From NCBI RefSeq assembly GCF_058153355.1, contig NZ_CM177019.1: 64,000 nucleotides of DNA; one strand, written 5' to 3'. The position numbers were made by a program, and so were the translations under genes. Below, piece by piece: positions 20,280-48,200 of the stretch; position 1 is the first letter of the stretch, and each line of letters begins with the position of its first letter. The notes beneath the pieces are model-generated. The model did no database searches. It was not told where the DNA came from and saw nothing but the letters and a program-made list of their open reading frames with translations.

Positions 20280-20756
20280 ATGCAACAACTTTCCTTTCTG
20301 CCCGGAGAGATGACGCCCGGCGAGCGCAGCCTCATTCAACGGGCCCTGAAAACCCTGGACCGCCATCTTCATGAACCCGGCGTGGCCTTCACCTCCACCC
20401 GTGCAGCACGGGAATGGCTGATTCTGAACATGGCGGGACTGGAGCGTGAAGAATTCCGGGTGCTGTATCTGAACAACCAGAATCAGCTGATTGCCGGTGA
20501 AACCCTCTTCACCGGCACCATCAACCGCACGGAAGTCCATCCCCGGGAAGTGATTAAACGCGCCCTGTACCACAATGCCGCTGCCGTGGTACTGGCACAC
20601 AATCACCCGTCCGGTGAAGTCACACCCAGTAAGGCAGACCGGCTTATCACCGAACGTCTGGTACAGGCACTGGGCCTGGTGGATATCCGGGTGCCGGACC
20701 ATCTGATAGTCGGTGGCAACCAGGTTTTCTCCTTTGCCGAACATGGTCTGCTTTAA
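20280..20756 (+). CDS. yeeS: RadC-like JAB-domain protein YeeS
   Basis: JAB/MPN motif HNHPSGEVTPSKAD; start set at MQQLSF by comparison with recalled K-12 YeeS. Confidence 0.8.
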   Translation: MQQLSFLPGEMTPGERSLIQRALKTLDRHLHEPGVAFTSTRAAREWLILNMAGLEREEFRVLYLNNQNQLIAGETLFTGTINRTEVHPREVIKRALYHNAAAVVLAHNHPSGEVTPSKADRLITERLVQALGLVDIRVPDHLIVGGNQVFSFAEHGLL

Positions 20757-20818
20757 CCCTTCACAACCACATCACACCTGTTTTCACTTTTATCTTCTGT
20801 CTTCAGAGGTATCCCATT

Positions 20819-21040
20819 ATGAAAATTATCACCCGTGGTGAAGCCATGCGTATTCACCAACAACATCCGACATCCCGTCTTTTTCCGTTCTGTACCGGTA
20901 AATACCGCTGGCACGGCAGTGCTGAAGCGTATACCGGTCGTGAAGTGCAGGATATTCCCGGTGTGCTGGCCGTGTTTGCTGAACGCCGTAAGGACAGTTT
21001 TGGTCCGTATGTCCGGCTGATGAGCGTCACCCTGAACTGA
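20819..21040 (+). CDS. yeeT: DUF987 protein YeeT
   Basis: 73-aa product matching recalled YeeT/YpjJ family sequence. Confidence 0.75.
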   Translation: MKIITRGEAMRIHQQHPTSRLFPFCTGKYRWHGSAEAYTGREVQDIPGVLAVFAERRKDSFGPYVRLMSVTLN

Positions 21041-21113
21041 GTGGGAATTCTGATGAGCAGAATTATCGCCACTACCGGACCATTCTTAGCCGATTTTCTG
21101 TAAGGATTTTATC

Positions 21114-21482
21114 GTGTCAGACACACTCCCCGGGACAACACTTCCCGACGACAATCACGACCGCCCCTGGTGGGGGCTGCCCTGCACCGTGACGCCCTGT
21201 TTCGGGGCACGTCTGGTGCAGGAGGGTAACCGGTTGCATTACCTTGCCGACCGCGCCGGTATCAGAGGCCTGTTCAGCGATGCAGATGCGTACCACCTGG
21301 ACCAGGCCTTTCCGCTGCTGATGAAACAACTGGAACTCATGCTCACCAGCGGTGAACTGAATCCCCGCCATCAGCATACCGTCACGCTGTATGCAAAAGG
21401 GCTGACCTGCAAAGCCGATACCCTCAGCAGTTGTGGTTACGTTTATCTGGCTGTTTATCCGACGCCCGAAATGAAAAATTAA
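21114..21482 (+). CDS. cbeA: type IV antitoxin CbeA (YeeU)
   Basis: 122-aa product matching recalled CbeA sequence (MSDTLPGTTLPDDNHDRPWWGLPCTV...). Confidence 0.85.
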   Translation: MSDTLPGTTLPDDNHDRPWWGLPCTVTPCFGARLVQEGNRLHYLADRAGIRGLFSDADAYHLDQAFPLLMKQLELMLTSGELNPRHQHTVTLYAKGLTCKADTLSSCGYVYLAVYPTPEMKN

Positions 21483-21570
21483 CTCTCCAGAATAGCCTTC
21501 TGCTACGGCCTGGTGTTTTCACCACGCCACTTTTCCATTTTTATATCTGCATATCAGGAAAATCTTCAGT

Positions 21571-21944
21571 ATGAAAACATTACCTGTATTACCCGGGCAG
21601 GCGGCCAGTTCTCGCCCGTCTCCTGTTGAAATCTGGCAGATACTGCTGTCCCGACTGCTGGACCAGCACTATGGCCTCACACTGAATGACACACCTTTTG
21701 CCGATGAACGTGTGATTGAGCAGCATATTGAGGCAGGCATTTCACTGTGTGATGCGGTGAACTTTCTCGTGGAAAAATACGCGCTGGTGCTACCGACCAG
21801 CCGGGATTCAGCGCCTGTACCCGCTCTCAGTTAATAAACAGCATCGATATCCTCCGGGCTCGCAGGGCGACCGGCCTGATGACCCGCGACAATTACAGAA
21901 CGGTAAATAACATTACCCTGGGTAAGTATCCGGAGGCGAAATGA
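21571..21944 (+). pseudogene. cbtA: toxin CbtA (YeeV), frameshifted
   Basis: First 73 codons match CbtA; the frame then terminates at 21832..21834, while the canonical C-terminus ([41 protein letters not shown]) is encoded in another frame ending at 21944. Confidence 0.7.
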
Positions 21945-22135
21945 TGACACTGGAAGCCGACAGCGTTAACGTACAGGCGCTGGATATGGGGCACATTGTC
22001 GTTGACATTGATGGTGTTAATATCACTGAACTGATTAATAAGGCCGCTGAAAACGGTTATTCACTCCGCGTGGTGGATGACCGTGACTCTACCGAAACAC
22101 CGGCAACTTATGCCAGCCCTCACCAGTTGCTGTAA
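21941..22135 (+). CDS. yeeW: YeeW-like protein
   Basis: 64-aa ORF whose ATG overlaps the canonical cbtA stop (ATGA). Confidence 0.6.
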   Translation: MMTLEADSVNVQALDMGHIVVDIDGVNITELINKAAENGYSLRVVDDRDSTETPATYASPHQLL

Positions 22136-22289
22136 GACAATGCAGTGATGCAGGGTATAGTGCCATTAACCACAGAAACAGCACTGTTGTCCTGTATTAA
22201 GCAGGCAAGAGAAGATGTCCTTACCCTGCGCCATCTGCAGCTTCTGCACCAGAACCGGTGAATCTCACTCAACAGGCTTCATTTCCCCT

Positions 22290-22318
22290 GACGCCAGCCT
22301 GAATACAGCTGGCGTTTT
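22290..22318 (+). terminator. rho-independent terminator after yeeW
   Basis: Hairpin CGCCAGC-CTGAATACA-GCTGGCG followed by TTTT. Confidence 0.6.
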
Positions 22319-22490
22319 CATTTATAAACAGAAAGGAAAACCGATAATAATGGAATGGACGCCCCGACCATGAAGCAACGGTAGGATATTACTGATAAAC
22401 CTTCCAGTGGAGGTGCGTTATGGCCGTTTTAACGATTAGCATTGACCTGACAAAAAATGAATTCCAAATCCACGGTCTGGGTAGGAACAG

Positions 22491-22552
22491 AAAAATCTAA
22501 GCTCAGAAAACGGATTAAAGTAAAAATCTAAGCTCAGAAAACGGATTAAAGT
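22491..22552 (+). repeat. perfect 31-bp tandem duplication (2 copies) in the leader of the IS110-family transposase
   Basis: AAAAATCTAAGCTCAGAAAACGGATTAAAGT at 22491..22521 and again at 22522..22552. Confidence 0.9.
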
Positions 22553-22680
22553 AAGGCAGTATGACTTTCCGTGAGACAGATGCTGGCCAACGTGGGATAT
22601 TTAACGCGGGTTAACATCGTTGTCAGAGCCGCATGGGTGAGCTGTTGCTACACCCCGGTATTTCCACCACGGAGGCCAGC

Positions 22681-23808
22681 ATGAACAACAATAACACATT
22701 GTACGTCGGGTTAGATGTTCACAAAGAATCGATTACTGTCGCTTATGCTATCAATTCAGAACCTGTTGAACTGATGGGTAAAATTGGCACATCACCTACT
22801 GATATTCAGAATCTTTGTAAACGTCTCAGGTCAAAGTCATCGCAGGTCAGTATCGTTTATGAAGCGGGGCCCTGTGGTTATGGACTTTATCGTCGGCTGG
22901 TGAAATCCGGTTTTGACTGCATGGTCTGCGCCCCCTCACTTATCCCGAAAAAACCGGGGGAGCGGGTTAAAACCGATCGCCGTGATGCCATCAGACTTGT
23001 GCGTTCACTGCGTGCAGGAGATCTTTCTGCTGTCTACGTACCCGGCATTGAAGATGAGGCATTCCGGGATTTGGCCCGGGCATGGGCATCTGCCCGCGAT
23101 GATTTACGGCATGCAAGGCAACGTCTGAAATCGTTTCTTCTGGTTCATGGGGTCCATTATGTCGGGCGAGCAGATTGGGGCCCTGCACACCGACGCTGGC
23201 TCAGCAAATACTCATTCGAAAGTCCCTGGCGACAATTAGCTTTTGACGAACACCGTCGTACAATAGAAGACCGGCAGGCACAATGTGAACGGCTGGAATC
23301 CGCCCTGAAGGAGGCCGTTACCGAATGGAGGCTGTATCCGGTAGTAGAGGCGCTGCAAGCCATGCGAGGGATTCAGTTTATTACTGCGGTTGGATTAATT
23401 TCTGAACTGGGTGATCTGACCCGTTTTGAACATCCACGACAACTGATGTCATGGTTTGGTATCACGCCATCAGAATATTCATCGGGTGGAAGCAGACATC
23501 AGGGCAGCATTACCAAAGCCGGAAACAGCTATGCCAGAAAGCTATTGGTCGAGGCAGCGTGGAGTTACCGTCATCCGGCACGCATCAGTCCGGCAATACA
23601 AAAAAGGCAGGAAAATTTACCCCGCCCCGTCATTGACAGAGCATGGGATGCTCAACTCAGGCTTTGTAAGAGGTATCGAAAACTTCAGGCCAAAGGAAAG
23701 AATGTCAATATTACAATTGTTGCTGTTGCACGTGAGCTGGCGGGTTTTATCTGGGATATGGGCCGAATAGCAATGTCTGTCGCACAACAACCACAATGTC
23801 ACAAATAA
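22681..23808 (+). CDS. IS110-family transposase (DEDD recombinase)
   Basis: GGAGG SD; N-terminal YVGLDVHK motif typical of IS110-family RuvC-like domains; 375 aa. Element ends not determined. Confidence 0.8.
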   Translation: MNNNNTLYVGLDVHKESITVAYAINSEPVELMGKIGTSPTDIQNLCKRLRSKSSQVSIVYEAGPCGYGLYRRLVKSGFDCMVCAPSLIPKKPGERVKTDRRDAIRLVRSLRAGDLSAVYVPGIEDEAFRDLARAWASARDDLRHARQRLKSFLLVHGVHYVGRADWGPAHRRWLSKYSFESPWRQLAFDEHRRTIEDRQAQCERLESALKEAVTEWRLYPVVEALQAMRGIQFITAVGLISELGDLTRFEHPRQLMSWFGITPSEYSSGGSRHQGSITKAGNSYARKLLVEAAWSYRHPARISPAIQKRQENLPRPVIDRAWDAQLRLCKRYRKLQAKGKNVNITIVAVARELAGFIWDMGRIAMSVAQQPQCHK

Positions 23809-26012
23809 AAAATGAGAATAACCAGTTCCCTGAAGGCGACGTAGCCCGGTACAAGAGTAACCCACGTTAGCGCTTGGCGACGGCGGAACAAAGCTGATTC
23901 GCGACGTAAGAAAGTGGCAGGCTCATATGACGGACCTCTGTAATGCGGTATCCAACCCGCGAATATCAGCGTGATTCACCGTCGGATTTACTGCTACGTC
24001 GCCCTCAGGGAATTAAACCTAAAAAGAAAATCGTCAAAATTAGAGATTCCGGTTTGACACGGAAAGTCATATCAGCGTTAATGGAGAATCATATTGATGC
24101 TTATTTATTGGTGAGAACTACGTTCCATGGCAGGAGTTCATCAATACGGTTGGAAGGTTATTCCGGCAGTACGCTCAGGATATGGCGCAGATACGCTTCC
24201 GGATCAATGTCGTTCAGAAGGCAAGTGCCGATAAGCCCATACAACAGTGCACTGCGCTCGCCGCCGAAGAACATAAAGTTTTTATTTCCGAGACAGATGG
24301 CACAAAGGGCTTTTTCCGCGGCATTATGTCTGCCTCCGCCTGACCGTCAACACTGTAATAACAGAGTGCGCCCCACTGATTCAGTACACAGCTGAACCAT
24401 TCTCCCAGTCTGGATTTTTGGATAGCGTGGCATTTTTCTCCACCATGCATGCAGTGAGTCCAGTAACAGTTTGCTCTTCTTCTGCCTGACCACAAGATGT
24501 GCTGGACTGGTAAACGATGGGGATACCTGCTTACGCGAGAGCAATAAGTGGCTGGCCACAATTCTCGGTACAAAACTCTGCTGAATAGCAGCGATTTTCC
24601 CAGCGTGGTGCGTCGTTTGCATTTTACTGGTTCTAAGTTAACAATTATCTGTTCACTAATGACTACTCTAAAAACTTGTATCAGGACTATCACTTATTTA
24701 AGTGATATTGGTTGTCTGGAGATTCAGGGGGCCAGTCTATAAACTTTTTACAAAAGGATGAATGCAGAAGGTTACTCTAATGGCCAGAGTGATGACAATG
24801 ATGGTCAGACGTTGACCTGCAGAAACTGCATTTTAATTGGTCTATAAAGTCTGCAAGAGGAATCAGGGTCAGATCAGTGAGTCTTATCGCGGCCCGAAGC
24901 TATGACTGAAAGAAGGCTGGATACAGAATTGCAACAATTTGGCAATGTCAGAACACAGAAGCTTTGCAAGCAGGTGAAAGGTTATGTCTAGCAAAAGGAG
25001 TATATCAGAATACATCTACTGATGTACAAAACACAACAATAGCTTCATGATATATAAATACGTGATGACGAGTGGTACTCCGCATGGTTATTTAACTTCT
25101 CAGCACCACTAATGATCCTGAGCAACTTCGTATTTGGGCCATTGCCATGGAGTAGAAAGCTGTGTCTGAGAATGCAGAATTTGAGAAAAGAATTCGCTTT
25201 CTTGGAGAGCTTCTGAAAATGGCACGCTAACAACGTTTTGTTAAAAAATGTGAATCACTTGCCGGGGCTGCATTTTCTATTCGAGGAGAATGTTGACGTA
25301 GATATTACAGAAATCTCAGCGCATCAGGATAAACTGCTACCTTAGGTCAACCACCAAAAGAAAATACAATACGTCCAGTTTGTATGCCTTTAATAACACA
25401 TCTTTTAAATGTTGAAGAATTATCCCGCCTGCTGAAGAACGTTGCTCTGAGTGTGATAAACCTTTTTATTCTTGATGATGTCAGCGAGAAGATGGAATAT
25501 ATCCCCGACTGGGTCGTGGTTACCCGGTTAAACATCTGGTGGCGCTAATAAATCTGGCAAGTCACATTCTGTTGAATGCTGTGACAGTGCCTTACCGAGA
25601 GAGCGAAATTGTGGTGTTCTAGTGCATAGTCGCCACCATTCCGGATAATTCTATTGCGTTGTTTTACAAGTTCTTTTACAGCGCAGATCTGTCGCTGACG
25701 TTGAATCAATAGCCTGGATTTCAGAACACAATGCCCGTTTGCTGGTTGGTCCGGCAGTAGCATTAATTCATTATCTGAATGAAATGTGTCAATCCACAGA
25801 AACCGCTGTCAATGACACATTTTGTCGGACGTTAACACGAGAAAGTCTGGCTATTCCGTAATGCCATCTTATTTCGTAATGGATTGAGAATGCTGGATTT
25901 TTAATTATATTACGCGCAGTATTAATCGCGTAAATGTTTTGCGGTCAGCAACGGTGGGGGATCCATTGTTCTGTTCAATGAATACCATCATACATTTGAA
26001 TCAGGAGTCGGT

Positions 26013-26558
26013 ATGATGATTTTGGTGACGGGGGGCGCACGGAGCGGGAAGAGTCGCCACGCAGAGGCGCTTATTGGGGACTCTTCACAGGTTCTGTATA
26101 TCGCTACCTCGCAAATCCTTGATGATGAGATGGCTGCACGGATAGAACATCATCGGCAAGGCCGCCCGGCGCACTGGCGCACAGTGGAGCGCTGGCAACA
26201 TCTTGATGAATTAATTCATGCAGACATTAACCCGAATGAGGTTGTGTTGCTGGAATGCGTTACCACAATGGTGACTAATCTGTTGTTTGATTATGGCGGC
26301 GATAAAGACCCTGATGAATGGGATTATCAGGCGATGGAACAGGCGATTAATGCTGAGATTCAGTCGTTGATTGCTGCCTGCCAACGTTGCCCCGCAAAGG
26401 TTGTATTAGTGACTAACGAAGTGGGAATGGGGATTGTGCCGGAGAGTCGTCTGGCACGACATTTTCGTGATATTGCCGGGCGGGTAAATCAGCAGTTGGC
26501 CGCTGCGGCAAATGAAGTATGGCTGGTGGTTTCGGGTATTGGAGTAAAAATCAAATGA
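26013..26558 (+). CDS. cobU: adenosylcobinamide kinase / adenosylcobinamide-phosphate guanylyltransferase CobU
   Basis: 181-aa product with P-loop GGARSGKS; overlaps the cobS start by 4 bp. Confidence 0.95.
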
Positions 26559-27322
26559 GTAAATTATTTTGGGCGATGCTCTCATTTATTACGCGTCTGC
26601 CTGTACCGCGTCGCTGGTCCCAGGGACTGGATTTCGAGCATTATTCTCGCGGTATTATTACTTTTCCTTTAATTGGATTATTGCTTGGCGCGATTAGCGG
26701 GCTGGTCTTCATGGTGCTGCAGGCATGGTGTGGCGTACCACTGGCGGCACTGTTTAGCGTACTTGTGCTGGCGCTGATGACCGGGGGATTCCACCTGGAC
26801 GGCCTCGCCGATACCTGTGATGGCGTATTTTCTGCACGTAGCCGCGATCGCATGTTGGAAATCATGCGTGATAGCCGTTTAGGCACCCATGGCGGTCTGG
26901 CATTGATTTTTGTTGTACTGGCAAAGATTCTGGTATTAAGCGAGTTGGCTCTGCGTGGCGAACCGATCCTTGCATCGCTGGCGGCAGCATGTGCGGTCAG
27001 CCGCGGGACTGCCGCATTATTGATGTATCGTCATCGTTATGCGCGGGAAGAAGGGCTTGGCAATGTGTTCATTGGCAAAATTGATGGGCGACAAACCTGC
27101 GTCACACTCGGCTTAGCCGCTATTTTTGCTGCCGTATTATTGCCGGGTATGCATGGTGTGGCTGCTATGGTGGTGACGATGGTGGCGATTTTCATCCTCG
27201 GTCAGCTTCTCAAACGTACGCTGGGCGGGCAAACCGGCGATACGCTGGGAGCTGCTATAGAGCTTGGTGAACTGGTCTTCCTGCTGGCACTGCTATCTGG
27301 CACTGCTATAAAGAGACGTGAC
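26555..27322 (+). CDS. cobS: cobalamin 5'-phosphate synthase CobS; stop codon lost, frame runs on into cobT
   Basis: Matches recalled CobS to ...ELVFLLALL; a 13-bp tandem duplication at 27284..27309 shifts the frame past the expected TAA, so the ORF continues to 28402. Confidence 0.85.
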
Positions 27323-28402
27323 ATGCAAACACTTGCCGATTTACTGAATACGATCCCTGCTATCGATCCTGCCGCTATGTCGCGTGCACAACGGCATATT
27401 GACGGGTTACTCAAACCTGTTGGTAGCCTGGGAAGGCTGGAGGCGCTTGCCATACAACTGGCGGGAATGCCGGGGTTGAATGGCATACCGCATGTGGGCA
27501 AAAAAGCGGTACTGGTTATGTGTGCCGATCACGGCGTCTGGGAGGAAGGGGTCGCTATTTCCCCAAAAGAAGTGACAGCCATTCAGGCTGAAAATATGAC
27601 CCGCGGAACAACCGGCGTGTGTGTGCTGGCAGCACAAGCGGGCGCTAACGTCCACGTAGTTGATGTTGGTATTGATAGTGCTGAGCCTATCCCCGGGCTT
27701 ATCAACATGCGTGTCGCACGAGGTAGCGGCAATATTGCTTCAGCTCCGGCAATGAGTCGCCGTCAGGCTGAAAAGTTGCTTTTGGACGTCATATGTTATA
27801 CGCGGGAGCTGGCAAAAAACGGTGTCACGCTGTTTGGTGTAGGTGAACTGGGGATGGCAAACACGACACCGGCAGCGGCAATAGTCAGCACAATCACTGG
27901 CCGGGATCCTGAAGAAGTGGTTGGGATTGGCGCAAACCTGCCGACAGATAAACTGGCTAATAAAATTGATGTTGTGCGCCGGGCGATTACGTTGAATCAA
28001 CCAAATCCGCAGGATGGCGTTGATGTCCTGGCAAAAGTGGGTGGATTTGATTTGGTCGGAATGGCTGGCGTGATGTTAGGCGCTGCTTCCTGCGGTTTAC
28101 CCGTGTTGCTGGATGGATTTCTTTCTTATGCTGCCGCGCTCGCAGCCTGCCAGATGTCTCCTGCAATCAAACCGTATCTCATTCCTTCTCACCTGTCGGC
28201 AGAAAAAGGGGCGCGTATTGCGCTGTCGCATTTGGGGCTGGAGCCTTATCTCAATATGGAGATGCGTTTAGGTGAGGGGAGTGGCGCAGCTCTGGCGATG
28301 CCCATCATCGAAGCTGCCTGTGCGATATATAACAACATGGGCGAACTTGCTGCCAGTAATATTGTTCTACCGGGGAATACGACTTCTGATTTGAACAGTT
28401 AA
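27323..28402 (+). CDS. cobT: nicotinate-nucleotide--dimethylbenzimidazole phosphoribosyltransferase CobT
   Basis: 359-aa product from the ATG at 27323 ([15 protein letters not shown]...); in frame with the read-through cobS frame. Confidence 0.9.
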
Positions 28403-28466
28403 AAACGAAAAGTCTGATAAAAGCTATACTTAACGGATAGCTTTCGCGACTTAGGAAAGGGACATG

Positions 28467-29399
28467 ATGCGTCGTGTAAATATTTTTTGCTCATTTGCTC
28501 TGCTTTTTGCCAGCCAAAATAGCCTGGCGGTAACTTATCCATTACCTCCAGAGGGTAGCCGTTTAGTGGGGCAGTCGCTTACTGTAACTGTTCCTGATCA
28601 CAATACTCAGCCGCTGGAGACTTTTGCCGCACAATACGGGCAAGGGTTAAGTAATATGCTGGAAGCGAATCCGGGCGCTGATGTTTTTTTGCCGAAGCCT
28701 GGCTCACAACTCACCATTCCGCAGCAACTGATTTTGCCCGCCACTGTTCGTAAAGGGATTGTGGTTAACGTCGCTGAAATGCGTCTTTATTACTATCCGC
28801 CAGACAGTAATACAGTGGAAGTCTTTCCTATTGGTATCGGCCAGGCTGGGCGAGAAACCCCGCGTAACTGGGTGACTACCGTTGAACGTAAACAAGAAGC
28901 ACCAACCTGGACGCCAACGCCGAACACCCGGCGCGAATATGCGAAACGAGGGGAGAGTTTGCCCGCATTTGTTCCTGCGGGGCCCGATAACCCCATGGGG
29001 CTGTACGCGATTTATATTGGCAGGTTGTATGCCATCCACGGTACCAATGCCAATTTTGGTATTGGGCTCCGTGTAAGTCAGGGCTGTATTCGTCTGCGTA
29101 ATGACGATATCAAATATCTGTTTGATAATGTTCCTGTAGGCACTCGTGTACAAGTTATTGATCAGCCAGTGAAATACACAACGGAACCGGATGGTTCAAA
29201 GTGGCTGGAAGTTCATGAGCCGCTGTCGCGCAATCGTGCAGAATATGAGTCTGACCGAAAAGTGCCATTGCCGGTAACCCCATCTTTGCGGGCGTTTATC
29301 AACGGGCAAGAAGTTGATGTAAATCGCGCAAATGCTGCGTTGCAACGTCGATCGGGAATGCCTGTGCAAATTAGTTCTGGTTCAAGACAGATGTTTTAA
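28467..29399 (+). CDS. ldtA: L,D-transpeptidase LdtA (ErfK)
   Basis: Signal peptide, LysM-like N-terminus and YkuD catalytic motif HGT...SQGCIRL. Confidence 0.9.
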
Positions 29400-29420
29400 G
29401 AGCGTTGATAATTAGAAAGT

Positions 29421-29449
29421 AAAAAGCCTGCTCGAAAGCAGGCTTTTTT
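29421..29449. terminator. bidirectional rho-independent terminator between ldtA and tRNA-Asn
   Basis: Hairpin AGCCTGC-TCGAA-GCAGGCT flanked by an A-run and a T-run. Confidence 0.8.
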
Positions 29450-29454
29450 GAATT

Positions 29455-29530
29455 TGGCTCCTCTGACTGGACTCGAACCAGTGACATACGGATTAACAGT
29501 CCGCCGTTCTACCGACTGAACTACAGAGGA
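29455..29530 (-). tRNA. asnV: tRNA-Asn (GUU)
   Basis: 76-nt exact match to the E. coli tRNA-Asn sequence, with anticodon loop CUGUUAA and 3' CCA encoded. Confidence 0.97.
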
Positions 29531-29856
29531 ATCGTGTGAACGGGGCGCATATTAATGGCAGTGCATGGTGATGTCAAAGGGTGAAATGCATTTTTTTGTT
29601 TGTTTGCTGCCAATTTCAACAAAGTGGTGAGCTTTCAATCTTATTGGGTAATGAACCATCGTGGTGCATACCCTCCTTTTATAGGGCAGGTGAATGCGAC
29701 TGCAGATAAAAAGAGCCAATGACGAATCTATCATAATCTCTTATTTGACAGTTGGTTAGCTTGCGCATCAACGCCAAAATAGAACTGGCAAGCATCTTGC
29801 ATTCTGGTTGTAAGTAATGGCGGCACTTGGGCCGACTCTTAAAAACCGGAGGCAAC

Positions 29857-30774
29857 ATGAACTTCAGACGCCTGAAATACTTCGTAAAAATTGTAGATAT
29901 TGGTAGCCTGACCCAGGCTGCTGAAGTATTGCATATCGCACAACCAGCGCTCAGCCAGCAGGTTGCCACACTGGAAGGTGAGTTTAATCAACAACTTTTG
30001 ATTCGCACAAAACGGGGCGTTACGCCAACTGACGCCGGAAAAATTCTCTATACCCATGCGCGGGCCATTTTACGTCAGTGTGAGCAGGCCCAACTGGCGG
30101 TGCATAACGTTGGTCAGGCATTATCGGGGCAAGTCTCGATTGGCTTTGCGCCAGGAACCGCTGCGTCATCCATCACCATGCCCTTATTACAGGCGGTTCG
30201 CGCTGAATTCCCGGAGGTCGTTATCTATCTTCATGAAAATAGCGGTGCAGTGCTTAACGAAAAACTGATAAATCACCAACTCGATATGGCGGTGATTTAT
30301 GAGCATTCCCCTGTGGCTGGTGTATCCAGTCAGGCTTTACTGAAAGAAGATCTTTTCCTGGTAGGGACTCAAGATTGTCCGGGGCAAAGCGTTGATGTTA
30401 ATGCTATTGCGCAAATGAACCTCTTTCTTCCCAGTGATTACAGTGCTGTTAGACTTCGTGTTGATGAGGCTTTTTCCCTACGGCGACTCACGGCAAAAGT
30501 CATTGGTGAAATTGAGTCTATTGCCACGCTTACCGCAGCGATTGCCAGCGGCATGGGCGTTGCAGTATTACCCGAATCGGCCGCGCGTTCGTTATGTGGC
30601 GCAGTAAACGGGTGGATGTCACGCATTACCACACCTTCCATGAGTCTCTCTTTGTCATTAAATTTACCCGCCAGAGCGAACTTATCACCACAGGCACAGG
30701 CAGTGAAAGAGTTGTTAATGTCAGTGATGAGTTCTCCAGTGATGGAAAAAAGGCAGTGGCAATTGGTGAGCTAA
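29857..30774 (+). CDS. nac: LysR-type nitrogen assimilation regulator Nac
   Basis: 305-aa LysR-family protein with N-terminal HTH; GGAGG SD; recalled Nac sequence and K-12 synteny. Confidence 0.9.
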   Translation: MNFRRLKYFVKIVDIGSLTQAAEVLHIAQPALSQQVATLEGEFNQQLLIRTKRGVTPTDAGKILYTHARAILRQCEQAQLAVHNVGQALSGQVSIGFAPGTAASSITMPLLQAVRAEFPEVVIYLHENSGAVLNEKLINHQLDMAVIYEHSPVAGVSSQALLKEDLFLVGTQDCPGQSVDVNAIAQMNLFLPSDYSAVRLRVDEAFSLRRLTAKVIGEIESIATLTAAIASGMGVAVLPESAARSLCGAVNGWMSRITTPSMSLSLSLNLPARANLSPQAQAVKELLMSVMSSPVMEKRQWQLVS

Positions 30775-30875
30775 GCGTTATATCGGGATGGAATAAGATG
30801 CGGGTTTTTATTATTTGTTATGCCGGGCATTAGACTTTAACAATAACGGAAAATCTGAACTGCCCGGAGTTTACC

Positions 30876-31826
30876 GTGAATTTCCAACAACTAAAGATAA
30901 TCCGCGAGGCTGCACGTCAGGATTACAACCTGACAGAGGTTGCGAATATGCTTTTTACCTCACAGTCCGGCGTCAGCCGTCATATTCGGGAACTGGAGGA
31001 TGAACTTGGCATCGAAATATTTGTTCGACGAGGTAAGCGACTGCTGGGCATGACTGAACCGGGCAAAGCATTACTGGTCATTGCAGAACGTATTCTGAAT
31101 GAAGCCAGTAATGTTCGTCGGCTTGCAGACCTGTTTACCAACGATACGTCTGGCGTTCTCACTATTGCAACGACGCATACTCAGGCACGTTATAGTTTGC
31201 CAGAGGTCATTAAATCTTTTCGCGAACTTTTCCCGGAGGTTCGGCTCGAGCTAATCCAGGGGACGCCACAGGAAATTGCGACGTTGTTGCATAATGGTGA
31301 AGCTGATATTGGTATCGCCAGCGAGCGTTTGAGTAATGACCCGCAGCTCGTCGCCTTCCCGTGGTTTCGTTGGCACCATAGTTTGCTTGTTCCACTCGAT
31401 CATCCCTTGACGCAAATTACACCATTGACGCTGGAATCAATAGCGAAGTGGCCGTTAATCACTTACCGACAGGGGATTACGGGGCGCTCACGTATTGATG
31501 ACGCATTTGCCCGCAAAGGTTTGCTGGCAGATATTGTATTAAGTGCGCAGGATTCTGATGTCATTAAAACCTATGTTGCTCTTGGGCTTGGGATCGGAAT
31601 AGTTGCCGAACAATCCAGCGGTGAACAAGAGGAAAAGAATTTAATCCGCCTGGATACGCGGCATCTTTTTGATGCTAATACTGTCTGGTTGGGACTGAAG
31701 CGAGGACAACTTCAGCGTAACTATGTCTGGCGCTTTCTGGAACTTTGTAATGCAGGGCTTTCAGTTGAGGATATCAAGCGGCAGGTGATGGAAAACAGTG
31801 AAGAGGAAATTGATTATCAGATATAG
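30876..31826 (+). CDS. cbl: LysR-type regulator Cbl (CysB-like)
   Basis: 316-aa LysR-family protein; recalled Cbl sequence and synteny. Confidence 0.9.
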   Translation: MNFQQLKIIREAARQDYNLTEVANMLFTSQSGVSRHIRELEDELGIEIFVRRGKRLLGMTEPGKALLVIAERILNEASNVRRLADLFTNDTSGVLTIATTHTQARYSLPEVIKSFRELFPEVRLELIQGTPQEIATLLHNGEADIGIASERLSNDPQLVAFPWFRWHHSLLVPLDHPLTQITPLTLESIAKWPLITYRQGITGRSRIDDAFARKGLLADIVLSAQDSDVIKTYVALGLGIGIVAEQSSGEQEEKNLIRLDTRHLFDANTVWLGLKRGQLQRNYVWRFLELCNAGLSVEDIKRQVMENSEEEIDYQI

Positions 31827-31827
31827 C

Positions 31828-31856
31828 AAAAAGCCCGCTATAAAAGCGGGCTTTTC
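31828..31856. terminator. bidirectional rho-independent terminator between cbl and tRNA-Asn
   Basis: Hairpin AGCCCGC-TATAAA-GCGGGCT followed by TTTT. Confidence 0.8.
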
Positions 31857-31863
31857 AGAAATT

Positions 31864-31939
31864 TGGCTCCTCTGACTGGACTCGAACCAGTGACATACGG
31901 ATTAACAGTCCGCCGTTCTACCGACTGAACTACAGAGGA
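31864..31939 (-). tRNA. asnU: tRNA-Asn (GUU)
   Basis: 76-nt sequence identical to the other tRNA-Asn copies. Confidence 0.97.
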
Positions 31940-32099
31940 ATCGCTGTTGAGGCACATCTTAACGGCGAAAAATCTTTTGTCAAACCCGATTTTTAATTTT
32001 CCCAACTGTTTGCCGTTTCTATCAACAGTTTGTTGCATTTGCAGACAATTTGTTGGCGAAAATCTTTGCAGCTTTGCTGATTCTCCCTCATTATTTGAA

Positions 32100-33587
32100 A
32101 TGTGGTTTCACTTTCTGCAATTAAGGTCGGCTTTGAATATCTCCTCTGCTTTACGCCAGGTTGTTCACGGCACTCGCTGGCACGCTAAACGCAAGAGCTA
32201 CAAAGTGTTGTTCTGGCGCGAGATAACCCCGCTTGCTGTTCCTATCTTCATGGAGAATGCCTGTGTCCTGTTGATGGGGGTTCTGAGCACTTTTCTGGTC
32301 AGCTGGCTGGGAAAAGATGCGATGGCCGGCGTGGGATTGGCGGACAGCTTCAATATGGTCATTATGGCTTTTTTTGCTGCTATCGATCTTGGTACTACTG
32401 TCGTTGTGGCATTTAGTCTCGGTAAGCGGGATCGACGACGAGCGAGGGTGGCGACGCGGCAGTCATTGGTGATCATGACGTTGTTTGCCGTACTGTTGGC
32501 AACGCTTATTCATCATTTTGGCGAGCAAATTATTGATTTCGTCGCGGGTGATGCCACGACAGAAGTTAAAGCACTGGCGTTGACTTATCTGGAGCTGACG
32601 GTACTCAGTTATCCAGCAGCTGCCATCACTTTGATTGGTAGCGGGGCACTTCGTGGTGCAGGGAATACGAAAATACCGCTACTGATTAACGGTAGCCTGA
32701 ATATTCTTAATATTATTATTAGCGGCATATTGATTTACGGCCTTTTCTCCTGGCTGGGACTGGGATTTGTCGGGGCTGGGTTGGGGTTAACCATTTCTCG
32801 TTATATTGGCGCAGTGGCAATTTTGTGGGTGCTGGCGATTGGTTTTAATCCTGCGCTAAGGATTTCGTTAAAGAGCTATTTTAAACCGCTGAATTTTAGC
32901 ATTATCTGGGAAGTCATGGGGATTGGTATTCCCGCGAGTGTCGAATCAGTGTTATTTACCAGTGGTCGGTTATTAACCCAAATGTTCGTTGCCGGGATGG
33001 GGACCAGTGTTATTGCCGGAAATTTTATCGCGTTTTCAATTGCGGCTCTTATCAACTTACCCGGAAGTGCGCTCGGCTCTGCTTCTACGATCATTACAGG
33101 CCGAAGGTTGGGTGTAGGACAGATAGCGCAAGCAGAGATTCAGTTGCGGCATGTGTTCTGGCTTTCCACTCTTGGATTAACGGCCATCGCCTGGCTAACG
33201 GCTCCCTTTGCCGGGGTTATGGCATCGTTTTACACCCAGGATCCACAGGTTAAACATGTCGTTGTGATTCTGATTTGGCTAAATGCTTTATTTATGCCTA
33301 TTTGGTCTGCCTCATGGGTGCTACCCGCTGGATTTAAGGGTGCTCGCGATGCACGTTACGCCATGTGGGTTTCTATGTTGAGCATGTGGGGTTGCCGGGT
33401 TGTAGTCGGTTATGTGCTGGGAATCATGCTTGGCTGGGGTGTGGTTGGTGTCTGGATGGGAATGTTTGCCGACTGGGCTGTGCGGGCCGTGCTGTTTTAC
33501 TGGCGCATGGTTACTGGACGTTGGCTGTGGAAATACCCTAGACCTGAGCCGCAAAAGTGTGAAAAAAAGCCAGTTGTGTCGGAATAA
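32100..33587 (+). CDS. yeeO: MATE-family efflux transporter YeeO
   Basis: 495-aa polytopic membrane protein; start set at MWFHFLQ because the longer track ORF overlaps the tRNA gene. Confidence 0.85.
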   Translation: MWFHFLQLRSALNISSALRQVVHGTRWHAKRKSYKVLFWREITPLAVPIFMENACVLLMGVLSTFLVSWLGKDAMAGVGLADSFNMVIMAFFAAIDLGTTVVVAFSLGKRDRRRARVATRQSLVIMTLFAVLLATLIHHFGEQIIDFVAGDATTEVKALALTYLELTVLSYPAAAITLIGSGALRGAGNTKIPLLINGSLNILNIIISGILIYGLFSWLGLGFVGAGLGLTISRYIGAVAILWVLAIGFNPALRISLKSYFKPLNFSIIWEVMGIGIPASVESVLFTSGRLLTQMFVAGMGTSVIAGNFIAFSIAALINLPGSALGSASTIITGRRLGVGQIAQAEIQLRHVFWLSTLGLTAIAWLTAPFAGVMASFYTQDPQVKHVVVILIWLNALFMPIWSASWVLPAGFKGARDARYAMWVSMLSMWGCRVVVGYVLGIMLGWGVVGVWMGMFADWAVRAVLFYWRMVTGRWLWKYPRPEPQKCEKKPVVSE

Positions 33588-33687
33588 ACGACAAAGTGCA
33601 GATTATTTCAGCAAACGATTTCAAATTTAAAAAACAGGCTTTGACATTGTGGATGGGCGTCGCTAATATTCGCCTCGTTCTCACGAT

Positions 33688-33763
33688 TCCTCTGTAGTTC
33701 AGTCGGTAGAACGGCGGACTGTTAATCCGTATGTCACTGGTTCGAGTCCAGTCAGAGGAGCCA
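33688..33763 (+). tRNA. asnW: tRNA-Asn (GUU)
   Basis: 76-nt TCCTCTGTAGTTCAGTCGGTAGAACGGCGGACTGTTAATCCGTATGTCACTGGTTCGAGTCCAGTCAGAGGAGCCA. Confidence 0.97.
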
Positions 33764-34213
33764 AATTTTAGTTTTGAGACATCTCTATGAGTCTCAAGAC
33801 AGTTAAAAAATAAAAATTATTTTTACCCGGTTACCTTGTAAAAAAGTGACTGGGTTTTTTGATTTCTGTGTTTCGTGCGCTTAATCGAGTCTCACGCTTC
33901 AGTTAGCAAATTGCCCCCCAACAGACATCACGATTCGCAAGGTCAAAAAATTCGTTCCGTGAAGTACCGTACAAAGGTATAGAGAAAAATGCCTTATGCG
34001 GGATGTTGCTGTCGCGTTTTTATCGGGAAACTAAACGTAATTGCCACTTTGTCTTCTGTAATCAGAAAAAGAAAACCTGGAATTTTAATAAATATTATTT
34101 CTCTGGGGCCGGTATTTTTATAATCAATATGACGAGTTGAATATTATATTTATTATAAGAATCATATGAGATTAAAGAAATCTGCCATAAAGACAGATTT
34201 CTTTAAAATATAA

Positions 34214-34930
34214 TTAGAGATTTGCGACGTTATGATAAACTTTTTGAACATCGTCGTCATCTTCAAGGGCATCAACAAGCCCTTCAAAGATTTCTAAATC
34301 TTCTGGTGAAAGCTCAACTTCAGATTGAGCGATCATTTCTAATTCTGTTGTTGAGAACTCAGTGATTCCAGCTGCTTTTAGAGCCGCGATTCCTTTATGA
34401 AGGTCAGTTGGTTCAGTATAAATAACAATGTTACCTTCTTCTTCGGTCACATCACGAACATCAACTTCAGCTTCAAGTAAAATTTCAAAAATATGGTCAG
34501 GGTCTGTACCTTTAAATACAATCACACCCGTATTGTCAAACATATAGCTGACAGAACCTGCCGCTCCGATATTGCCGCCTTTTTTATTGAAAATTGTGCG
34601 AACGTTAGCAATCGTACGGTTAACATTTGAAGTCAAGGTTTCAGCGATAATCATTGAGCCATTAGGACCAAAGCCTTCATAACGGCCCTGCACGAACGTT
34701 TCATCTCCGCCGCCTTTGGCTTTATCAATTGCTTTATCAATAACATGCTTTGGAACTTGTGCCTGCTTTGCTCGTTCAATAACGAATTTTAAAGATGTGT
34801 TTAATTCTGGATCGGGTTCACCTTGTTTGGCAGCAGCATAGATTTCTACACCGAATTTTGCATAAATTTTAGACGTCGCACCGTCTTTAGCCGTTTTTTT
34901 AGCAACAATATTGGCCCATTTACGTCCCAC
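34214..34930 (-). CDS. yeeN: YebC/PmpR-family transcriptional regulator YeeN
   Basis: 238-aa product matching the YebC family; AT-rich gene; K-12 synteny. Confidence 0.85.
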
Positions 34931-35271
34931 TGGAATGATCTCCTCGAAAATTTATTTACATTACTGGTAAATCGTTAACATGCGTTAATTCGGCATATTA
35001 TATCATAACAGGAAAAATCTCGTCTATTAGAAATAAAAATATTCTAAATCCATAATCTTATATTTAATCTCATAAAAACTAATGTTGTTGGCGGATTTTT
35101 TTATAATTGTATTTTGAAAGCATACTTGCTTTTAATATATGGAAATCATTAAGGCTATAATAAAACTCGTATCCGCCCCAGGAAGCAAACAGCCTGCTTT
35201 ATTGCAGGCTATTTGCTGGATGACTTACTAAATCCTTCACATCTATTCCTGATAAAAAGGAACAGAACTTA

Positions 35272-36726
35272 TTACCGGAACGGCGGTTCATTAAAGGTTC
35301 GTAATTTACGTGAATGCAGTCGGTCGCCTTCTGCGCGCAGCAAATCGATCGCCCGAATGCCAATTTGCAGGTGTTCGGAAATAGCGCCTTCATAAAAACG
35401 GTTAGCCTGACCGGGAAGTTTAATCTCACCATGCAACGGTTTATCTGAAACACACAGTAGTGTCCCGTATGGCACGCGGAAACGATATCCTTGCGCGGCA
35501 ATGGTTGCACTTTCCATATCAATTGCTACGGCCCGGCTTAAGTTAAAACGAAGTGCAGAAGCTGAGTAACGTAATTCCCAGTTCCTGTCATCTGTGGTTA
35601 CCACAGTGCCAGTACGTAGCCGCTGTTTAACTTCCTCTCCGGGCCTGCCGCTGACTAACTTGGTAGCGTCATAAAGCGCACGTTGCACTTCAGCAATGCT
35701 CGGAATAGGAATATCGGGCGGCAGTACCGCATCAAGAACGTGGTCATCGCGTAAATAAGCGTGTGCAAGTACATAATCTCCAATGGCCTGGCTTTCACGT
35801 AAGCCACCACAGTGACCAATCATCAACCAGACATCCGGGCGCAGCACCGCCAGATGATCGCAGATGGTTTTAGCATTTGACGGTCCCACGCCAATATTCA
35901 CCAGAGTAATACCCTGACCATCGGCGGTAATTAAATGCCATGCTGGCATCTGGTGTTTTTTCCATGCAAGGTCGGAAATGGCTTCTTCTGGCGCTTCGGT
36001 TTCGGCGGTGATCCAGTTCCCGCCAGCACAAGAAAGGGCAATGTAGGGACTATCAGGGTCGAGGATCTGGCTGCATCCCCAACGAACGAATTCATCCACA
36101 TAACGTGTGTAGTTGGTAAACAAGACGAACGGCTGAAAATGTTCAACTGGCGTACCGGTATAATGGCGCAACCGCGCGAGGGAAAAATCGACGCGGCGCG
36201 CATCAAAATGCGATAGCGGGGAGAATTCCGTTGGATGATAAATGCCGTCTGCAGTTTCATCGCCAATTTGCGCCAGTTCTGTTGTCGGGAAGTAGCGAGT
36301 TAATCCAGCGCTCATTGAGCGATCAAGTGTCAATTCAGAGCCATCGATGACATAAGGATAAGGGATTTCATGCTGCGAGGGTTGCACCGAGATATGCGCA
36401 CCATAATCCTGATACAGCAACGTAAGTTGTTCATTCAGATACGAACGAAAGAGAGTAGGGCGAGTAATCGTGGTGGTGTAGCTGCCTGCGTGGGTAAAAC
36501 GACCAAATGCGCGCGTTTTGGGGGGATTTGTTGTGCTACCGTCCCAGGTTACGGTCAGTGATGGATAGACAAAAAGACCTTCTTTACGGGCATTTTCATC
36601 AGGTAATTCGCCACTTTTAATATAGTTGCCAATGGCATTGCGTAAAGCGACTACAGATTGCTCATACAGCGCGTCGAGTTTTTCCAGTGCCTGAGCTGGG
36701 GTCAGACCGGAGCCCTTATTATTCAT
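35272..36726 (-). CDS. amn: AMP nucleosidase
   Basis: 484 aa from the SD-supported ATG at 36726 (AGGAGA upstream); matches recalled Amn. Confidence 0.9.
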   Translation of the reverse strand: MNNKGSGLTPAQALEKLDALYEQSVVALRNAIGNYIKSGELPDENARKEGLFVYPSLTVTWDGSTTNPPKTRAFGRFTHAGSYTTTITRPTLFRSYLNEQLTLLYQDYGAHISVQPSQHEIPYPYVIDGSELTLDRSMSAGLTRYFPTTELAQIGDETADGIYHPTEFSPLSHFDARRVDFSLARLRHYTGTPVEHFQPFVLFTNYTRYVDEFVRWGCSQILDPDSPYIALSCAGGNWITAETEAPEEAISDLAWKKHQMPAWHLITADGQGITLVNIGVGPSNAKTICDHLAVLRPDVWLMIGHCGGLRESQAIGDYVLAHAYLRDDHVLDAVLPPDIPIPSIAEVQRALYDATKLVSGRPGEEVKQRLRTGTVVTTDDRNWELRYSASALRFNLSRAVAIDMESATIAAQGYRFRVPYGTLLCVSDKPLHGEIKLPGQANRFYEGAISEHLQIGIRAIDLLRAEGDRLHSRKLRTFNEPPFR

Positions 36727-36827
36727 GTGTGTCTCCTGTTCCATACAATTACCGCACTTCCGATAGTATGTCACAGGAATGTGAAACAAAAGTGTAAGGC
36801 GAAGATCGGATGATCTTCGCCAGGCTA

Positions 36828-38144
36828 TTAAGCGCGTTGATTGTCTTTCATCAACAAAGCGGTCATTGCGGAAATCAGGCATCCAGCCAGTAAATAAATG
36901 GCGACGCTATGCCAGTTCCCGGCAAAGTAAGTGATAAGTGCAGCGGCAATGAAAGGTGTAAATCCACCGCCAACCACACTGGCAACCTGATATCCGATTC
37001 CAGCACCACTGTAGCGATAACTGGCACCAAACATTTCGGTAAACATCGGTTGTTGCACGCACACCACCATGTCATGCGCAATGTTTGCCAGCATTATGGA
37101 GAAGAAAACTATCCAGAAAATGGATTGTGCTTCAAGCGCCATAAAGAAAGGAAATGCGCTCAACGTTCCGATTAACGCACCTGTGATATAAACTCTGCGG
37201 CGACCAAAACGATCGGCAAGCCAGGCAAAACAGGGAATTGTCAGACAGCTTAGTCCACCTACCAGCAAACCAATATTGAGGAAAAGTTCGCGCGGTAACC
37301 CCATATTCTGGGTTGAATAATTAAGTGCGAAGGCGGTAACGATGTACATCGTCAGCAACTCGCACAGTCGTAGCGCAATAATCTTCAGAAAAGCACCGGG
37401 ATGTCGTAACAGTGCTTCGATAACCGGGATGCGTTTTTGCGCTGCCGCTTGATTATGTTGCTGTTGTTCAAATTCCGCGGACTCCTCCATGCCATTACGC
37501 ACCCACAATGCCCCCAGTACCAGTACGATGCTAAACAGGAAAGGAATGCGCCAGCCCCAGCTTAAAAACTGTTCGTCAGTCGTCATCATACTGATCAATG
37601 AAACCAGTCCGGTCGAAAGCAGTAAACCTACTCCGTAGCCAACTTGTACACCGCTACTGTAAAAGGCTTTTTTATTTTTCGGTGCACTTTCAACGGAAAG
37701 TAACGCCGCGCCTCCCCATTCGCCGCCGACAGCAAATCCCTGAATGGCACGCAGCGTCACCAGTAAAATGGGGGCCCACCACCCAATAGTCGAGAATGAA
37801 GGAAGAATACCAATCAAGGCTGTCGCGATACCCATCATCCAGACGGTCAGCATTAACATGCGCTTACGTCCCAGTCGGTCGCCAAAGTGACCGAAAATGA
37901 CACCGCCGAGCGGACGGAACAGGAATCCGACACCAAAGGTGGCAAATGCGGCGAGCGTTCCCATAGCCGGGCTTACTTGCGGGAAAAACTCGCGATTAAA
38001 CACCAGTGCGGCGGTAATGCCATAGAGTAAAAAATCATACCAGTCGACGACGGCACCAGCGAAACTGCCTAACGCAGCTCGTCGGGCGCGACTTAACGAA
38101 AGCGTCCCTTCATCGGGACGAGTGGAGATGAGCGTGGAGTCCAT
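36828..38144 (-). CDS. shiA: shikimate transporter ShiA (MFS)
   Basis: 438-aa 12-TM MFS protein with GRLGRKR-type loop; synteny. Confidence 0.9.
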   Translation of the reverse strand: MDSTLISTRPDEGTLSLSRARRAALGSFAGAVVDWYDFLLYGITAALVFNREFFPQVSPAMGTLAAFATFGVGFLFRPLGGVIFGHFGDRLGRKRMLMLTVWMMGIATALIGILPSFSTIGWWAPILLVTLRAIQGFAVGGEWGGAALLSVESAPKNKKAFYSSGVQVGYGVGLLLSTGLVSLISMMTTDEQFLSWGWRIPFLFSIVLVLGALWVRNGMEESAEFEQQQHNQAAAQKRIPVIEALLRHPGAFLKIIALRLCELLTMYIVTAFALNYSTQNMGLPRELFLNIGLLVGGLSCLTIPCFAWLADRFGRRRVYITGALIGTLSAFPFFMALEAQSIFWIVFFSIMLANIAHDMVVCVQQPMFTEMFGASYRYSGAGIGYQVASVVGGGFTPFIAAALITYFAGNWHSVAIYLLAGCLISAMTALLMKDNQRA

Positions 38145-38449
38145 AATGATCCTGTTTGTACTGTCTTTTTATAATTAGTATGGAAAAGGTAACTCACATT
38201 GCCGTCGATCTATAAACGAACCTTATGAGACTACCGCGCCAGAGCGCTTCTGCAAATGATTTTATGGCTGATTAACGGCAACATGAAAAATTCGATGGAA
38301 GATGAAATCGCAGGAGTTGCATAAGGATTGAGCAGAGCACCTACAGTTTTGAGATATGAAACATAAAAGTCCGCATATGCACAAAATTGCACCCTGATGA
38401 TTCTGATAGACTGCATTGCATTATAACCAGTAGGGAGGCGAGGTTAGGT

Positions 38450-39520
38450 ATGTTTTTAGCATCATTGTTGAGACGTATTGCATTTAGTTACTACGATTAT
38501 AAAGCTAATAATTTCAATATTGAAAAAACAGAGTTTGTTGTCATCCATATTCCCGATCAGATTGGCGATGCTATGGCTATCTTTCCAGTGATTCGGGCGC
38601 TTGAATTGCATAAAATCAAGCATCTTTTAATAGTTACTTCGACAATTAATTTAGAAGTCTTTAATGCGCTCAAACTTGAACATACTAAATTAACATTAGT
38701 CACAATGACTATGCAGGATCACGCAACATTAAAAGAAATAAAAGATTTAGCGAAGAACATAACACAGCAATACGGTACGCCGGATCTTTGTATAGAGGCA
38801 ATGCGTAAAAAGAACCTGAAAACGATGTTATTTATCAGTCAGTTGAAAGCAAAAACAAATTTTCAGGTTGTTGGTTTAACCATGAAGTGCTACTCCCCTT
38901 TGTGTAAGAACGCCTCCCGGATGGATCAACATCTCCGGGCTCCCGTACCCATGACATGGGCGTTTATGATGCGTGAAGCGGGTTATCCGCCAGTCAGGCC
39001 AATATATGAATTACCATTAAGCGAGCAGGTAATAAATGAAGTACGTGAGGAATTGTGCACTTTAGGATCTTACATTGCGCTTAATTTAGATGGCAGCGTG
39101 CAGGAACGCACATTTTCGTTATCAGTAGCTGAGAAACTCATCGCCAAAATTCAAAGTGATAATGATATGCCAATAGTCATTGTTCATGGACCAAAAGGGG
39201 AAGATAAAGCCCGGAAATTAGCGGGTTGTTATAATAATGTCTACCGGCTATCCTTATCACCCTCGATTAAACGTTCAGCAGCAATCATAAAAGATGCTTA
39301 TATCGCAATAACCCCTGATACCTCAATATTACATATGGCAAGTGCCTATAATACCCCCGTCGTTGCAATTTATGCTGATTACAAAACGCGGTGGCCTGCG
39401 ATGGCAGATATCTCGGAGTCAGTGGTCGTTGGGCAAAAAATTGATCATATAAGTTTGGATGAATTCGGAAAGGCGCTAAAAAGTGCTTTGGAGAGAGTAT
39501 GTGTCAGTACTTACGTATAG
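38450..39520 (+). CDS. yeeL: GT9-family heptosyltransferase-like protein YeeL (intact)
   Basis: GGGAGGCGAGG SD before the ATG at 38450; AT-rich; family assigned from recall and position next to yeeJ. Confidence 0.65.
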   Translation: MFLASLLRRIAFSYYDYKANNFNIEKTEFVVIHIPDQIGDAMAIFPVIRALELHKIKHLLIVTSTINLEVFNALKLEHTKLTLVTMTMQDHATLKEIKDLAKNITQQYGTPDLCIEAMRKKNLKTMLFISQLKAKTNFQVVGLTMKCYSPLCKNASRMDQHLRAPVPMTWAFMMREAGYPPVRPIYELPLSEQVINEVREELCTLGSYIALNLDGSVQERTFSLSVAEKLIAKIQSDNDMPIVIVHGPKGEDKARKLAGCYNNVYRLSLSPSIKRSAAIIKDAYIAITPDTSILHMASAYNTPVVAIYADYKTRWPAMADISESVVVGQKIDHISLDEFGKALKSALERVCVSTYV

Positions 39521-39899
39521 AAGGTAATGCCGATCTATGCTGAACAGGGGACATTAATACCCTGAGGTTGGTCAATCACCACAAAAAAAGCCTTTGAATC
39601 AAAGCAATACTCACCGAATAATAAGGCAACCTGAACTTAAATCCCCGTTAACTGCCATACATTATTATGACTTGCACTGATGTAATTAGCTAAATATTAT
39701 CGTGATTTGACTAAATAGCAAAAATGATAGCTATCAAAAATAGCTCATATACTTTGTTTCCCGCTGCCGTAGAATAGATGGTCCTTCCATGTTTCAAGCA
39801 TTTATTCAAAAAAAAGGGGGCTCGACTGTCTTACGATAAACAGAGAGGGATTGTAAAGTCGAGTGCCCCTAATGGAGCACTCTATAAAAAAATCAACAA

Positions 39900-47888
<7,989 letters not shown>

Positions 47889-48200
47889 GCTTACCTTCCC
47901 TGAACGAGCTAACATAAATGCGCCCTTTCTAGCACAGCGAAAAAATATAAATCCTGATAGCAATATGATTGAAAATTAATAACTTTTCGTTAAGCAGTTT
48001 TGGGTGTGAGTTGCAAGAGGGGAGACTACTGAATAACTCAAGTTTTATAATCGAGGGGAAAATGGTGATGGTGTCCATAGCAAAACGCCCTCAACCATAA
48101 AGATCGAGGGCGCTTAAGATGTCAAAAACCCGCTATCCGTTAAAAAGCAATGCTCAACTAAGGTCAGTGACATTGCGCTAAAAAGCGAATTTTTAGAATT

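Follow-up and report, generated by a model that had tools for sequence, protein, structure and literature searches.

Does the gene at positions 21571–21944 of this stretch of DNA still encode a toxin? The stretch, here called the window, comprises 64,000 nucleotides of contig NZ_CM177019.1 (NCBI RefSeq assembly GCF_058153355.1), and the gene in question begins and ends as cbtA, doing so in two different reading frames. In Escherichia coli K-12, cbtA (yeeV, b2005) and cbeA (yeeU, b2004) form a type IV toxin-antitoxin pair, which is located on the cryptic prophage CP4-44. The window shares with K-12 CP4-44 this locus and its gene order yeeS-yeeT-cbeA-cbtA-yeeW, the synteny of the right end of the island extending over window positions 20304–22523, which are 99.82% identical to K-12 over 2,221 nt. 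We consider it likely (probability of about 0.8, judged from reading frames, family conservation and a predicted structure) that the window gene is a pseudogene in which full toxin function is lost.

The change that separates the two genes is small. When 21571–21944 is aligned with cbtA of K-12 MG1655 (b2005, 375 nt), 481 of 482 columns are identical and the sole difference is one absent G. Alignment with K-12 and O157:H7 places the 1-bp deletion between 21790 and 21791 on the plus strand, within codon 74 (CGT, Arg), the context being GTGC^TACC in the window versus GTGCGTACC in K-12. The first-pass annotation, which was made from the letters alone, had already suspected a single-base deletion near 21790, had given the K-12 sequence correctly and had proposed the alignment with K-12 yeeV/cbtA that now shows K-12 to have the G that the window is without. 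The start codon of cbtA and the region upstream of it are the same as in K-12. From this start, the frame at 21571–21834 (+) reads MKTLP...EKYALV, i.e., 73 CbtA residues, then 14 foreign residues encoded by out-of-frame codons, and then two stop codons in succession, TAA at 21832–21834 and TAA at 21835–21837. The remainder of the gene persists as an out-of-frame remnant at 21792–21944 (+), which encodes CbtA residues 75–124, is followed by the original TGA stop, is read in the frame starting at 21570 and terminates at 21944. Indeed, tblastn with K-12 CbtA as query returns residues 1–73 (21571–21789) and residues 75–124 (21792–21941) at 100% identity in two frames. Translation and tblastn bear out the earlier statement that the first 73 codons match CbtA before the frame stops at 21832–21834, and translation agrees with its further statement that the canonical C-terminus lies in a different frame and ends at 21944 with an ATGA overlap onto yeeW.

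The same picture is obtained with the Pfam family PF06755 (CbtA_toxin). Both parts of the gene belong to the family, the 87-residue open reading frame scoring 128.7 bits and the remnant 50.4 bits at a cut-off of 25. Profile positions 1–73 are, however, found in one frame and 75–112 in the other, whereas K-12 CbtA covers positions 1–112 in a single frame; a complete domain in one frame (1–112, in a protein of about 124 amino acids) is not present in the window gene. The split homology, together with five RefSeq records in which the gene is noted as "frameshifted", is what characterizes a frameshift pseudogene of the type annotated by PGAP. Within the window no second copy of cbtA or of cbeA was found.

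Both neighbors of the toxin gene are intact. The antitoxin gene cbeA (yeeU; 21114–21482, +) encodes 122 amino acids and matches PF06154 over positions 1–100/101 (E 4e-53), which agrees with the first-pass view that the antitoxin is intact; it differs from K-12 by one substitution (99.2% identity), D108 in K-12 CbeA being G108 in the window (D108G). At this codon (window 21436) Gly is the common state and the Asp of K-12 the exception among the 12 loci that were compared. Since cbeA ends 88 nt upstream of cbtA, the type IV CbeA/CbtA module of the window has its antitoxin in place, and its intact toxin is missing, codon 74 having lost one base and translation stopping prematurely at 21832 as a result. 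Across 21114–22523 the sequence of O104:H4 does not differ from the window (100% identity), and its cbeA product is WP_001285585.1; this cbeA allele also accompanies an intact toxin in FDAARGOS_943. On the other side, yeeW (21941–22135, +; DUF5983 N-terminal domain) is identical to K-12 YeeW. Its ATG at 21941 overlaps the original stop codon of cbtA (ATGA), and a GGAGG is found 4 nt upstream of this ATG. In the deletion allele, translational coupling of yeeW to cbtA would be lost, yeeW probably retaining its own ribosome-binding site. None of the NCBIfam models matches CbtA, CbeA, YeeT or YeeW.

A missing base in a single sequence invites the suspicion that it is an error of sequencing or assembly and that the gene itself is undamaged. 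No assembly error is more common than a single-base indel, and apart from this base cbtA is identical to that of K-12. The site GTGC^TACC, however, contains no homopolymer, and the deletion is far too widespread for such an explanation. A megablast search of 5,426 complete E. coli genomes with the 374-base query gave many 100% matches, among them O157:H7, O145, O104:H4 and isolates from humans, cattle, chickens and pond water. For counting, probes of 70 and 71 nt were used, with which the 99% identity band is reached by exact matches alone: these 5,426 genomes contain the exact 70-nt deletion allele in 1,496 records (approximately 28%), as against 1,785 records for the exact intact one. For scale, about 3,900 genomes, approximately 2.6 times as many as the 1,496 deletion records, contain a single-copy segment of the CP4-44 right end that lies immediately 3′ of yeeW; in the 1,496 records, copies of the deletion were counted wherever in the genome they lie. 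The exact 87-residue product is encoded in at least 1000 public contigs. That one and the same allele recurs in so many independently finished genomes, and linked to a nearby nucleotide polymorphism, rules out the sequencing error, to which we attach a negligible probability. The deletion is neither a sequencing error nor a private mutation. A scan of the GTDB species representatives with a 40-mer across the deletion gave no match.

The allele is also already known to the databases, namely as an annotated pseudogene in RefSeq. The gene is noted as "frameshifted" in O157:H7, O104:H4, WG5, SC516 and 720632, all of which carry identical copies, and each of these deletion loci was opened: 374 of 374 bases are identical to the window, the same deletion and the same linked polymorphism are present, and cbeA and yeeW are intact in all of them. 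The surroundings are not the same: in the RefSeq deletion genomes the locus adjoins tmaR-yeeA-sbmC, and in the window an IS110 element and remnants of the CP4-44 left end come after it. The first-pass annotation had concluded that the toxin is likely inactivated in this strain. The inactivation, which we also infer, is supported by the split frame and by the RefSeq notes on identical sequences; the restriction to one strain has to be given up for an allele carried by roughly 28% of the complete genomes of E. coli. Searching the literature, we found no description of a natural frameshift allele of cbtA. In a genome-wide association study of microcin J25 resistance the strongest gene-content signal was a non-wild-type cbtA "allele" that was confined to resistant E. 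coli (PMC10926693). This allele could be the one with the frameshift, serving to mark a lineage; the text of the study gives no sequence for it.

Given a real deletion, full-length CbtA might still be made if the −1 frame were entered by programmed ribosomal frameshifting or by transcriptional slippage. The two frames overlap by 82 nt (21753–21834), and a −1 shift anywhere in this overlap would yield a near-native protein. A programmed frameshift or slippage site is, however, not found there: an X XXY YYZ heptamer is absent from the overlap, and the longest homopolymer within it is A5. Neither does it offer a usable restart codon, the longest restart product of the C-terminal frame being only 21 amino acids. 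Moreover, all full-length homologs examined are encoded in a single frame, and the window allele is a derived deletion in a conserved codon. With slippery site and usable restart both absent, recoding is ruled out for all practical purposes. Judged by its reading frames, the native 124-residue dual inhibitor is not made from the window allele.

Did the deletion arise once or many times? The evidence, which is that of sequence comparison, favors one mutational event and a later dispersal by recombination. Twelve loci were sampled, six with the deletion and six with an intact gene; position 22150 (+) is G in all six deletion alleles and A in all six intact ones, and genome-wide the exact 70-mer bearing this G is found in 1,562 records, which is near the 1,496 records of the deletion. 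It is this linkage that points to one origin and subsequent spread by recombination. The sampled copies of the deletion haplotype are nearly identical, with almost no internal variation; for example, four deletion loci from different lineages are 100% identical over 1,264–1,410 nt. Recurrent mutation at a hot spot has two observations in its favor, namely that a 6-bp inverted repeat (GCTGGT...ACCAGC) flanks the site, which falls in its loop, and that the island of FDAARGOS_943, which is 99.9% identical to that of the window over approximately 20 kb and carries the same IS110-family insertion, nevertheless has an intact cbtA. A four-way comparison speaks to the second point. At the upstream variable sites the window agrees with K-12 and FDAARGOS_943, and at three clustered sites, 21790, 22150 and 22286, it agrees with the deletion haplotype of O157:H7 and not with FDAARGOS_943. 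A short patch of recombination would produce three clustered differences of this kind. Because these differences lie close together and agree with the O157:H7 haplotype, and because the deletion goes together with G at 22150 in 12 of 12 loci at a site that has no slippage-favoring repeat or homopolymer, repeated origin of the deletion is disfavored and appears quite improbable. An exchange of the island, or of a segment of it, between lineages would also fit the contrast between the core genes asnV-nac-cbl-yeeO-yeeN-amn-shiA, which are at most 98.2% identical to those of any complete E. coli genome, and the right end of the island, which is 99.8% identical to K-12.

The tail of 14 foreign residues is also encountered in other protein contexts. 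In one public protein (P0226) the frameshift tail is joined to CbeA residues 1–76 by a cbeA::cbtA deletion fusion, in another (P0188) to a GTPase-like (P-loop) N-terminus, and a third (P0181) has a partial tail that diverges after 10 letters, indicating a further change downstream. These tails show secondary deletions, i.e., further decay of the deletion haplotype in some genomes.

What has been lost with the 51 residues 74–124 can be estimated from the conservation of the family. In an alignment (A2) of 28 full-length homologs from Escherichia, Klebsiella, Citrobacter, Enterobacter, Serratia and Raoultella, all of 124–126 amino acids, this part contains 19 invariant columns, among them R74-T75-D76 and S91-R98. 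R74, the residue of the deletion codon, is invariant in these 28 close homologs, and in a wider alignment that reaches down to 32% identity it is at least 90% conserved together with D76, D93, A97, A100, G102 and L103. Shorter distant members (101–116 amino acids) of the wider alignment extend to G102-L103 or end just short of it. It should be mentioned that the cluster representatives found by a search at 50% identity are chiefly fragments and frameshift products.

An AlphaFold2 model calculated from the wider alignment (pLDDT 83.8, pTM 0.72) predicts a single all-helical unit with helices at residues 18–34, 46–55, 59–70, 91–100 and 106–117, of which the last two belong to the lost part; the three helices within residues 18–70 are predicted with very high confidence (pLDDT ~95). 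A first run with a shallow alignment (at least 69% identity) had given pLDDT values below 50 for residues 75–124; this low C-terminal confidence was due to the shallow alignment, since the diverse one raised it. A sequence search found no solved structure for the CbtA family, and no fold in the PDB matched the model. With the missing part go conserved positions and two of the five predicted helices, so that the dual toxin as a whole has very probably been lost: an 87-residue product without the segment RTD...(S)IDILRAR.ATGL and without these helices would no longer be the toxin that blocks both FtsZ and MreB, a double block recognizable by lemon-shaped cells.

This does not mean that the 87-residue product must be without any activity. 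Tan, Awano and Inouye reportedly studied, in 2011 (Mol Microbiol 79:109), engineered C-terminal truncations of YeeV/CbtA that were expressed from plasmids in the laboratory, and such truncations are reported to cause cell elongation. Like the natural allele, the engineered constructs lose the C-terminus and keep the N-terminal part; unlike them, the natural allele adds 14 foreign residues. With reference to Tan et al. (2011), a review attributes the interaction with FtsZ to the N-terminus and that with MreB to the C-terminus (PMC3920263). Heller et al. found that F65S abolishes binding of FtsZ and that R15C abolishes binding of MreB (PMC5624674), and both residues lie within the 73 that are retained. 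Thus the determinant of FtsZ binding, F65, is kept, but with R15 a determinant of MreB binding also maps to the N-terminus, which contradicts a simple picture of two domains.

From these data an alternative can be constructed in which the 87-residue product is made and is partly active, inhibiting cell division via FtsZ without acting on MreB, so that the locus would be a working, if altered, toxin-antitoxin pair and cbeA would be kept for this reason. Besides the reported elongation phenotype, the assignment of FtsZ to the N-terminus and the presence of F65, the alternative can draw on the unchanged start codon and upstream region, on the three confidently predicted helices, which might fold on their own, and on cbeA, which is intact in six of six deletion loci, as it should be, too, if the fragment had remained toxic. 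Against it speak the position of the truncation within the conserved core of the family, which reaches to about residue 103 even in members of 32–49% identity, the loss of the invariant R74-T75-D76 along with two of five helices, the foreign tail, the location of R15, the further deletions that the haplotype has suffered in some genomes, including the cbeA::cbtA fusion, and the treatment of the gene as a pseudogene by NCBI. The intact cbeA fits both a dead and a partly active toxin, because CbeA also neutralizes YkfI and YpjF. On balance, a partly active fragment seems to us unlikely, though less so than the hot spot.

A bolder version would make the allele a natural separation-of-function variant: an 87-residue inhibitor of FtsZ only, held in check by cbeA, that was spread by recombination to more than one-quarter of E. 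coli genomes, O157:H7 and O104:H4 included, because it does less harm, or more good, than the dual toxin. This is more doubtful still than the partly active fragment itself. If it were true that the truncated product acts on FtsZ alone, the allele would be a ready-made natural variant with which the two activities of CbtA could be separated.

The loss of full toxin function remains the reading that we prefer, and the events can be ordered as follows. An inherited deletion of the G of codon 74 has occurred in a CP4-44-type cbtA, the deletion being derived and probably of one origin, and the allele, now common in E. coli, would travel between lineages with the right end of CP4-44-like islands. 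From the normal start the cell would make CbtA residues 1–73 plus 14 unrelated residues, a product that lacks the conserved C-terminal segment and the last two predicted helices, and cbeA would persist as an orphan antitoxin. Such an orphan could plausibly be of use. The paralogous toxins YkfI of CP4-6 and YpjF of CP4-57, with the antitoxins YafW and YfjZ, belong to the same Pfam families as CbtA and CbeA. They are encoded at separate loci and are 58–62% identical to CbtA, and toxins of the YkfI/YpjF/CbtA type are cross-neutralized by the antitoxins, CbeA being able to neutralize both YkfI and YpjF (PMC5371832). This cross-neutralization would give the orphan cbeA a plausible role. The loss of toxicity, the role of the orphan antitoxin and the uncoupling of yeeW are all to be read here as probable consequences of the deletion.

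For the comparison of literature data it follows that the K-12 "reference" cbtA, which has the G and encodes a 124-residue dual inhibitor of FtsZ and MreB, is not representative of the gene and is not its universal state; in the window the frame breaks after residue 73. Carriers of the frameshifted allele include major pathogen lineages. As the deletion allele is common, also among pathogens, inferences on stress tolerance or persistence that were drawn from K-12 CbtA should be transferred to strains of these lineages only after their cbtA allele has been checked. Beyond a correct annotation, the finding matters little.

The island around the locus has peculiarities of its own. An ISSso6-like element of the IS110 family (22524–24073, with the transposase at 22633–23808) follows approximately 390 nt downstream of yeeW, and at its left junction (22491–22554) there is a perfect 31-nt tandem duplication of 2.1 copies; in FDAARGOS_943 this element occupies the identical position next to a single copy of the 31-mer. 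Over 20304–29530 the window shows the right end yeeS...yeeW (+), the IS110 element, inverted remnants of the CP4-44 left end (24738–25777), and then cobU-cobS-cobT-ldtA-tRNA-Asn. From this order it follows that the island is inverted relative to K-12, where its orientation to the cobUST-asnV core is different. None of the 5,426 complete genomes searched covers the arrangement of the window, at most 62% of positions 10000–32000 being covered in any of them, which indicates that the lineage of the host is unrepresented among those genomes.

Further changes are found downstream. At the last codons of cobS (~27289–27314) there is a 13-bp tandem duplication, CTGGCACTGCTAT, which is absent from K-12. 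It puts the TAA of cobS out of frame, and a 9-residue linker leads in frame into the ATG of cobT, the predicted result being a CobS-CobT fusion of 627 amino acids (window 26519–28402). The core at 29450–39618, which comprises tRNA-Asn, nac, cbl, yeeO, yeeN, amn, shiA and a family 9 glycosyltransferase gene, is the region for which identity to any of the 5,426 genomes does not exceed 98.2%. Finally, on the minus strand at 39900–47963 lies an intact open reading frame of 2,687 amino acids for an inverse autotransporter (intimin/YeeJ-like), the counterpart of which in LF82 is fragmented and 77–93% identical where it can be aligned.
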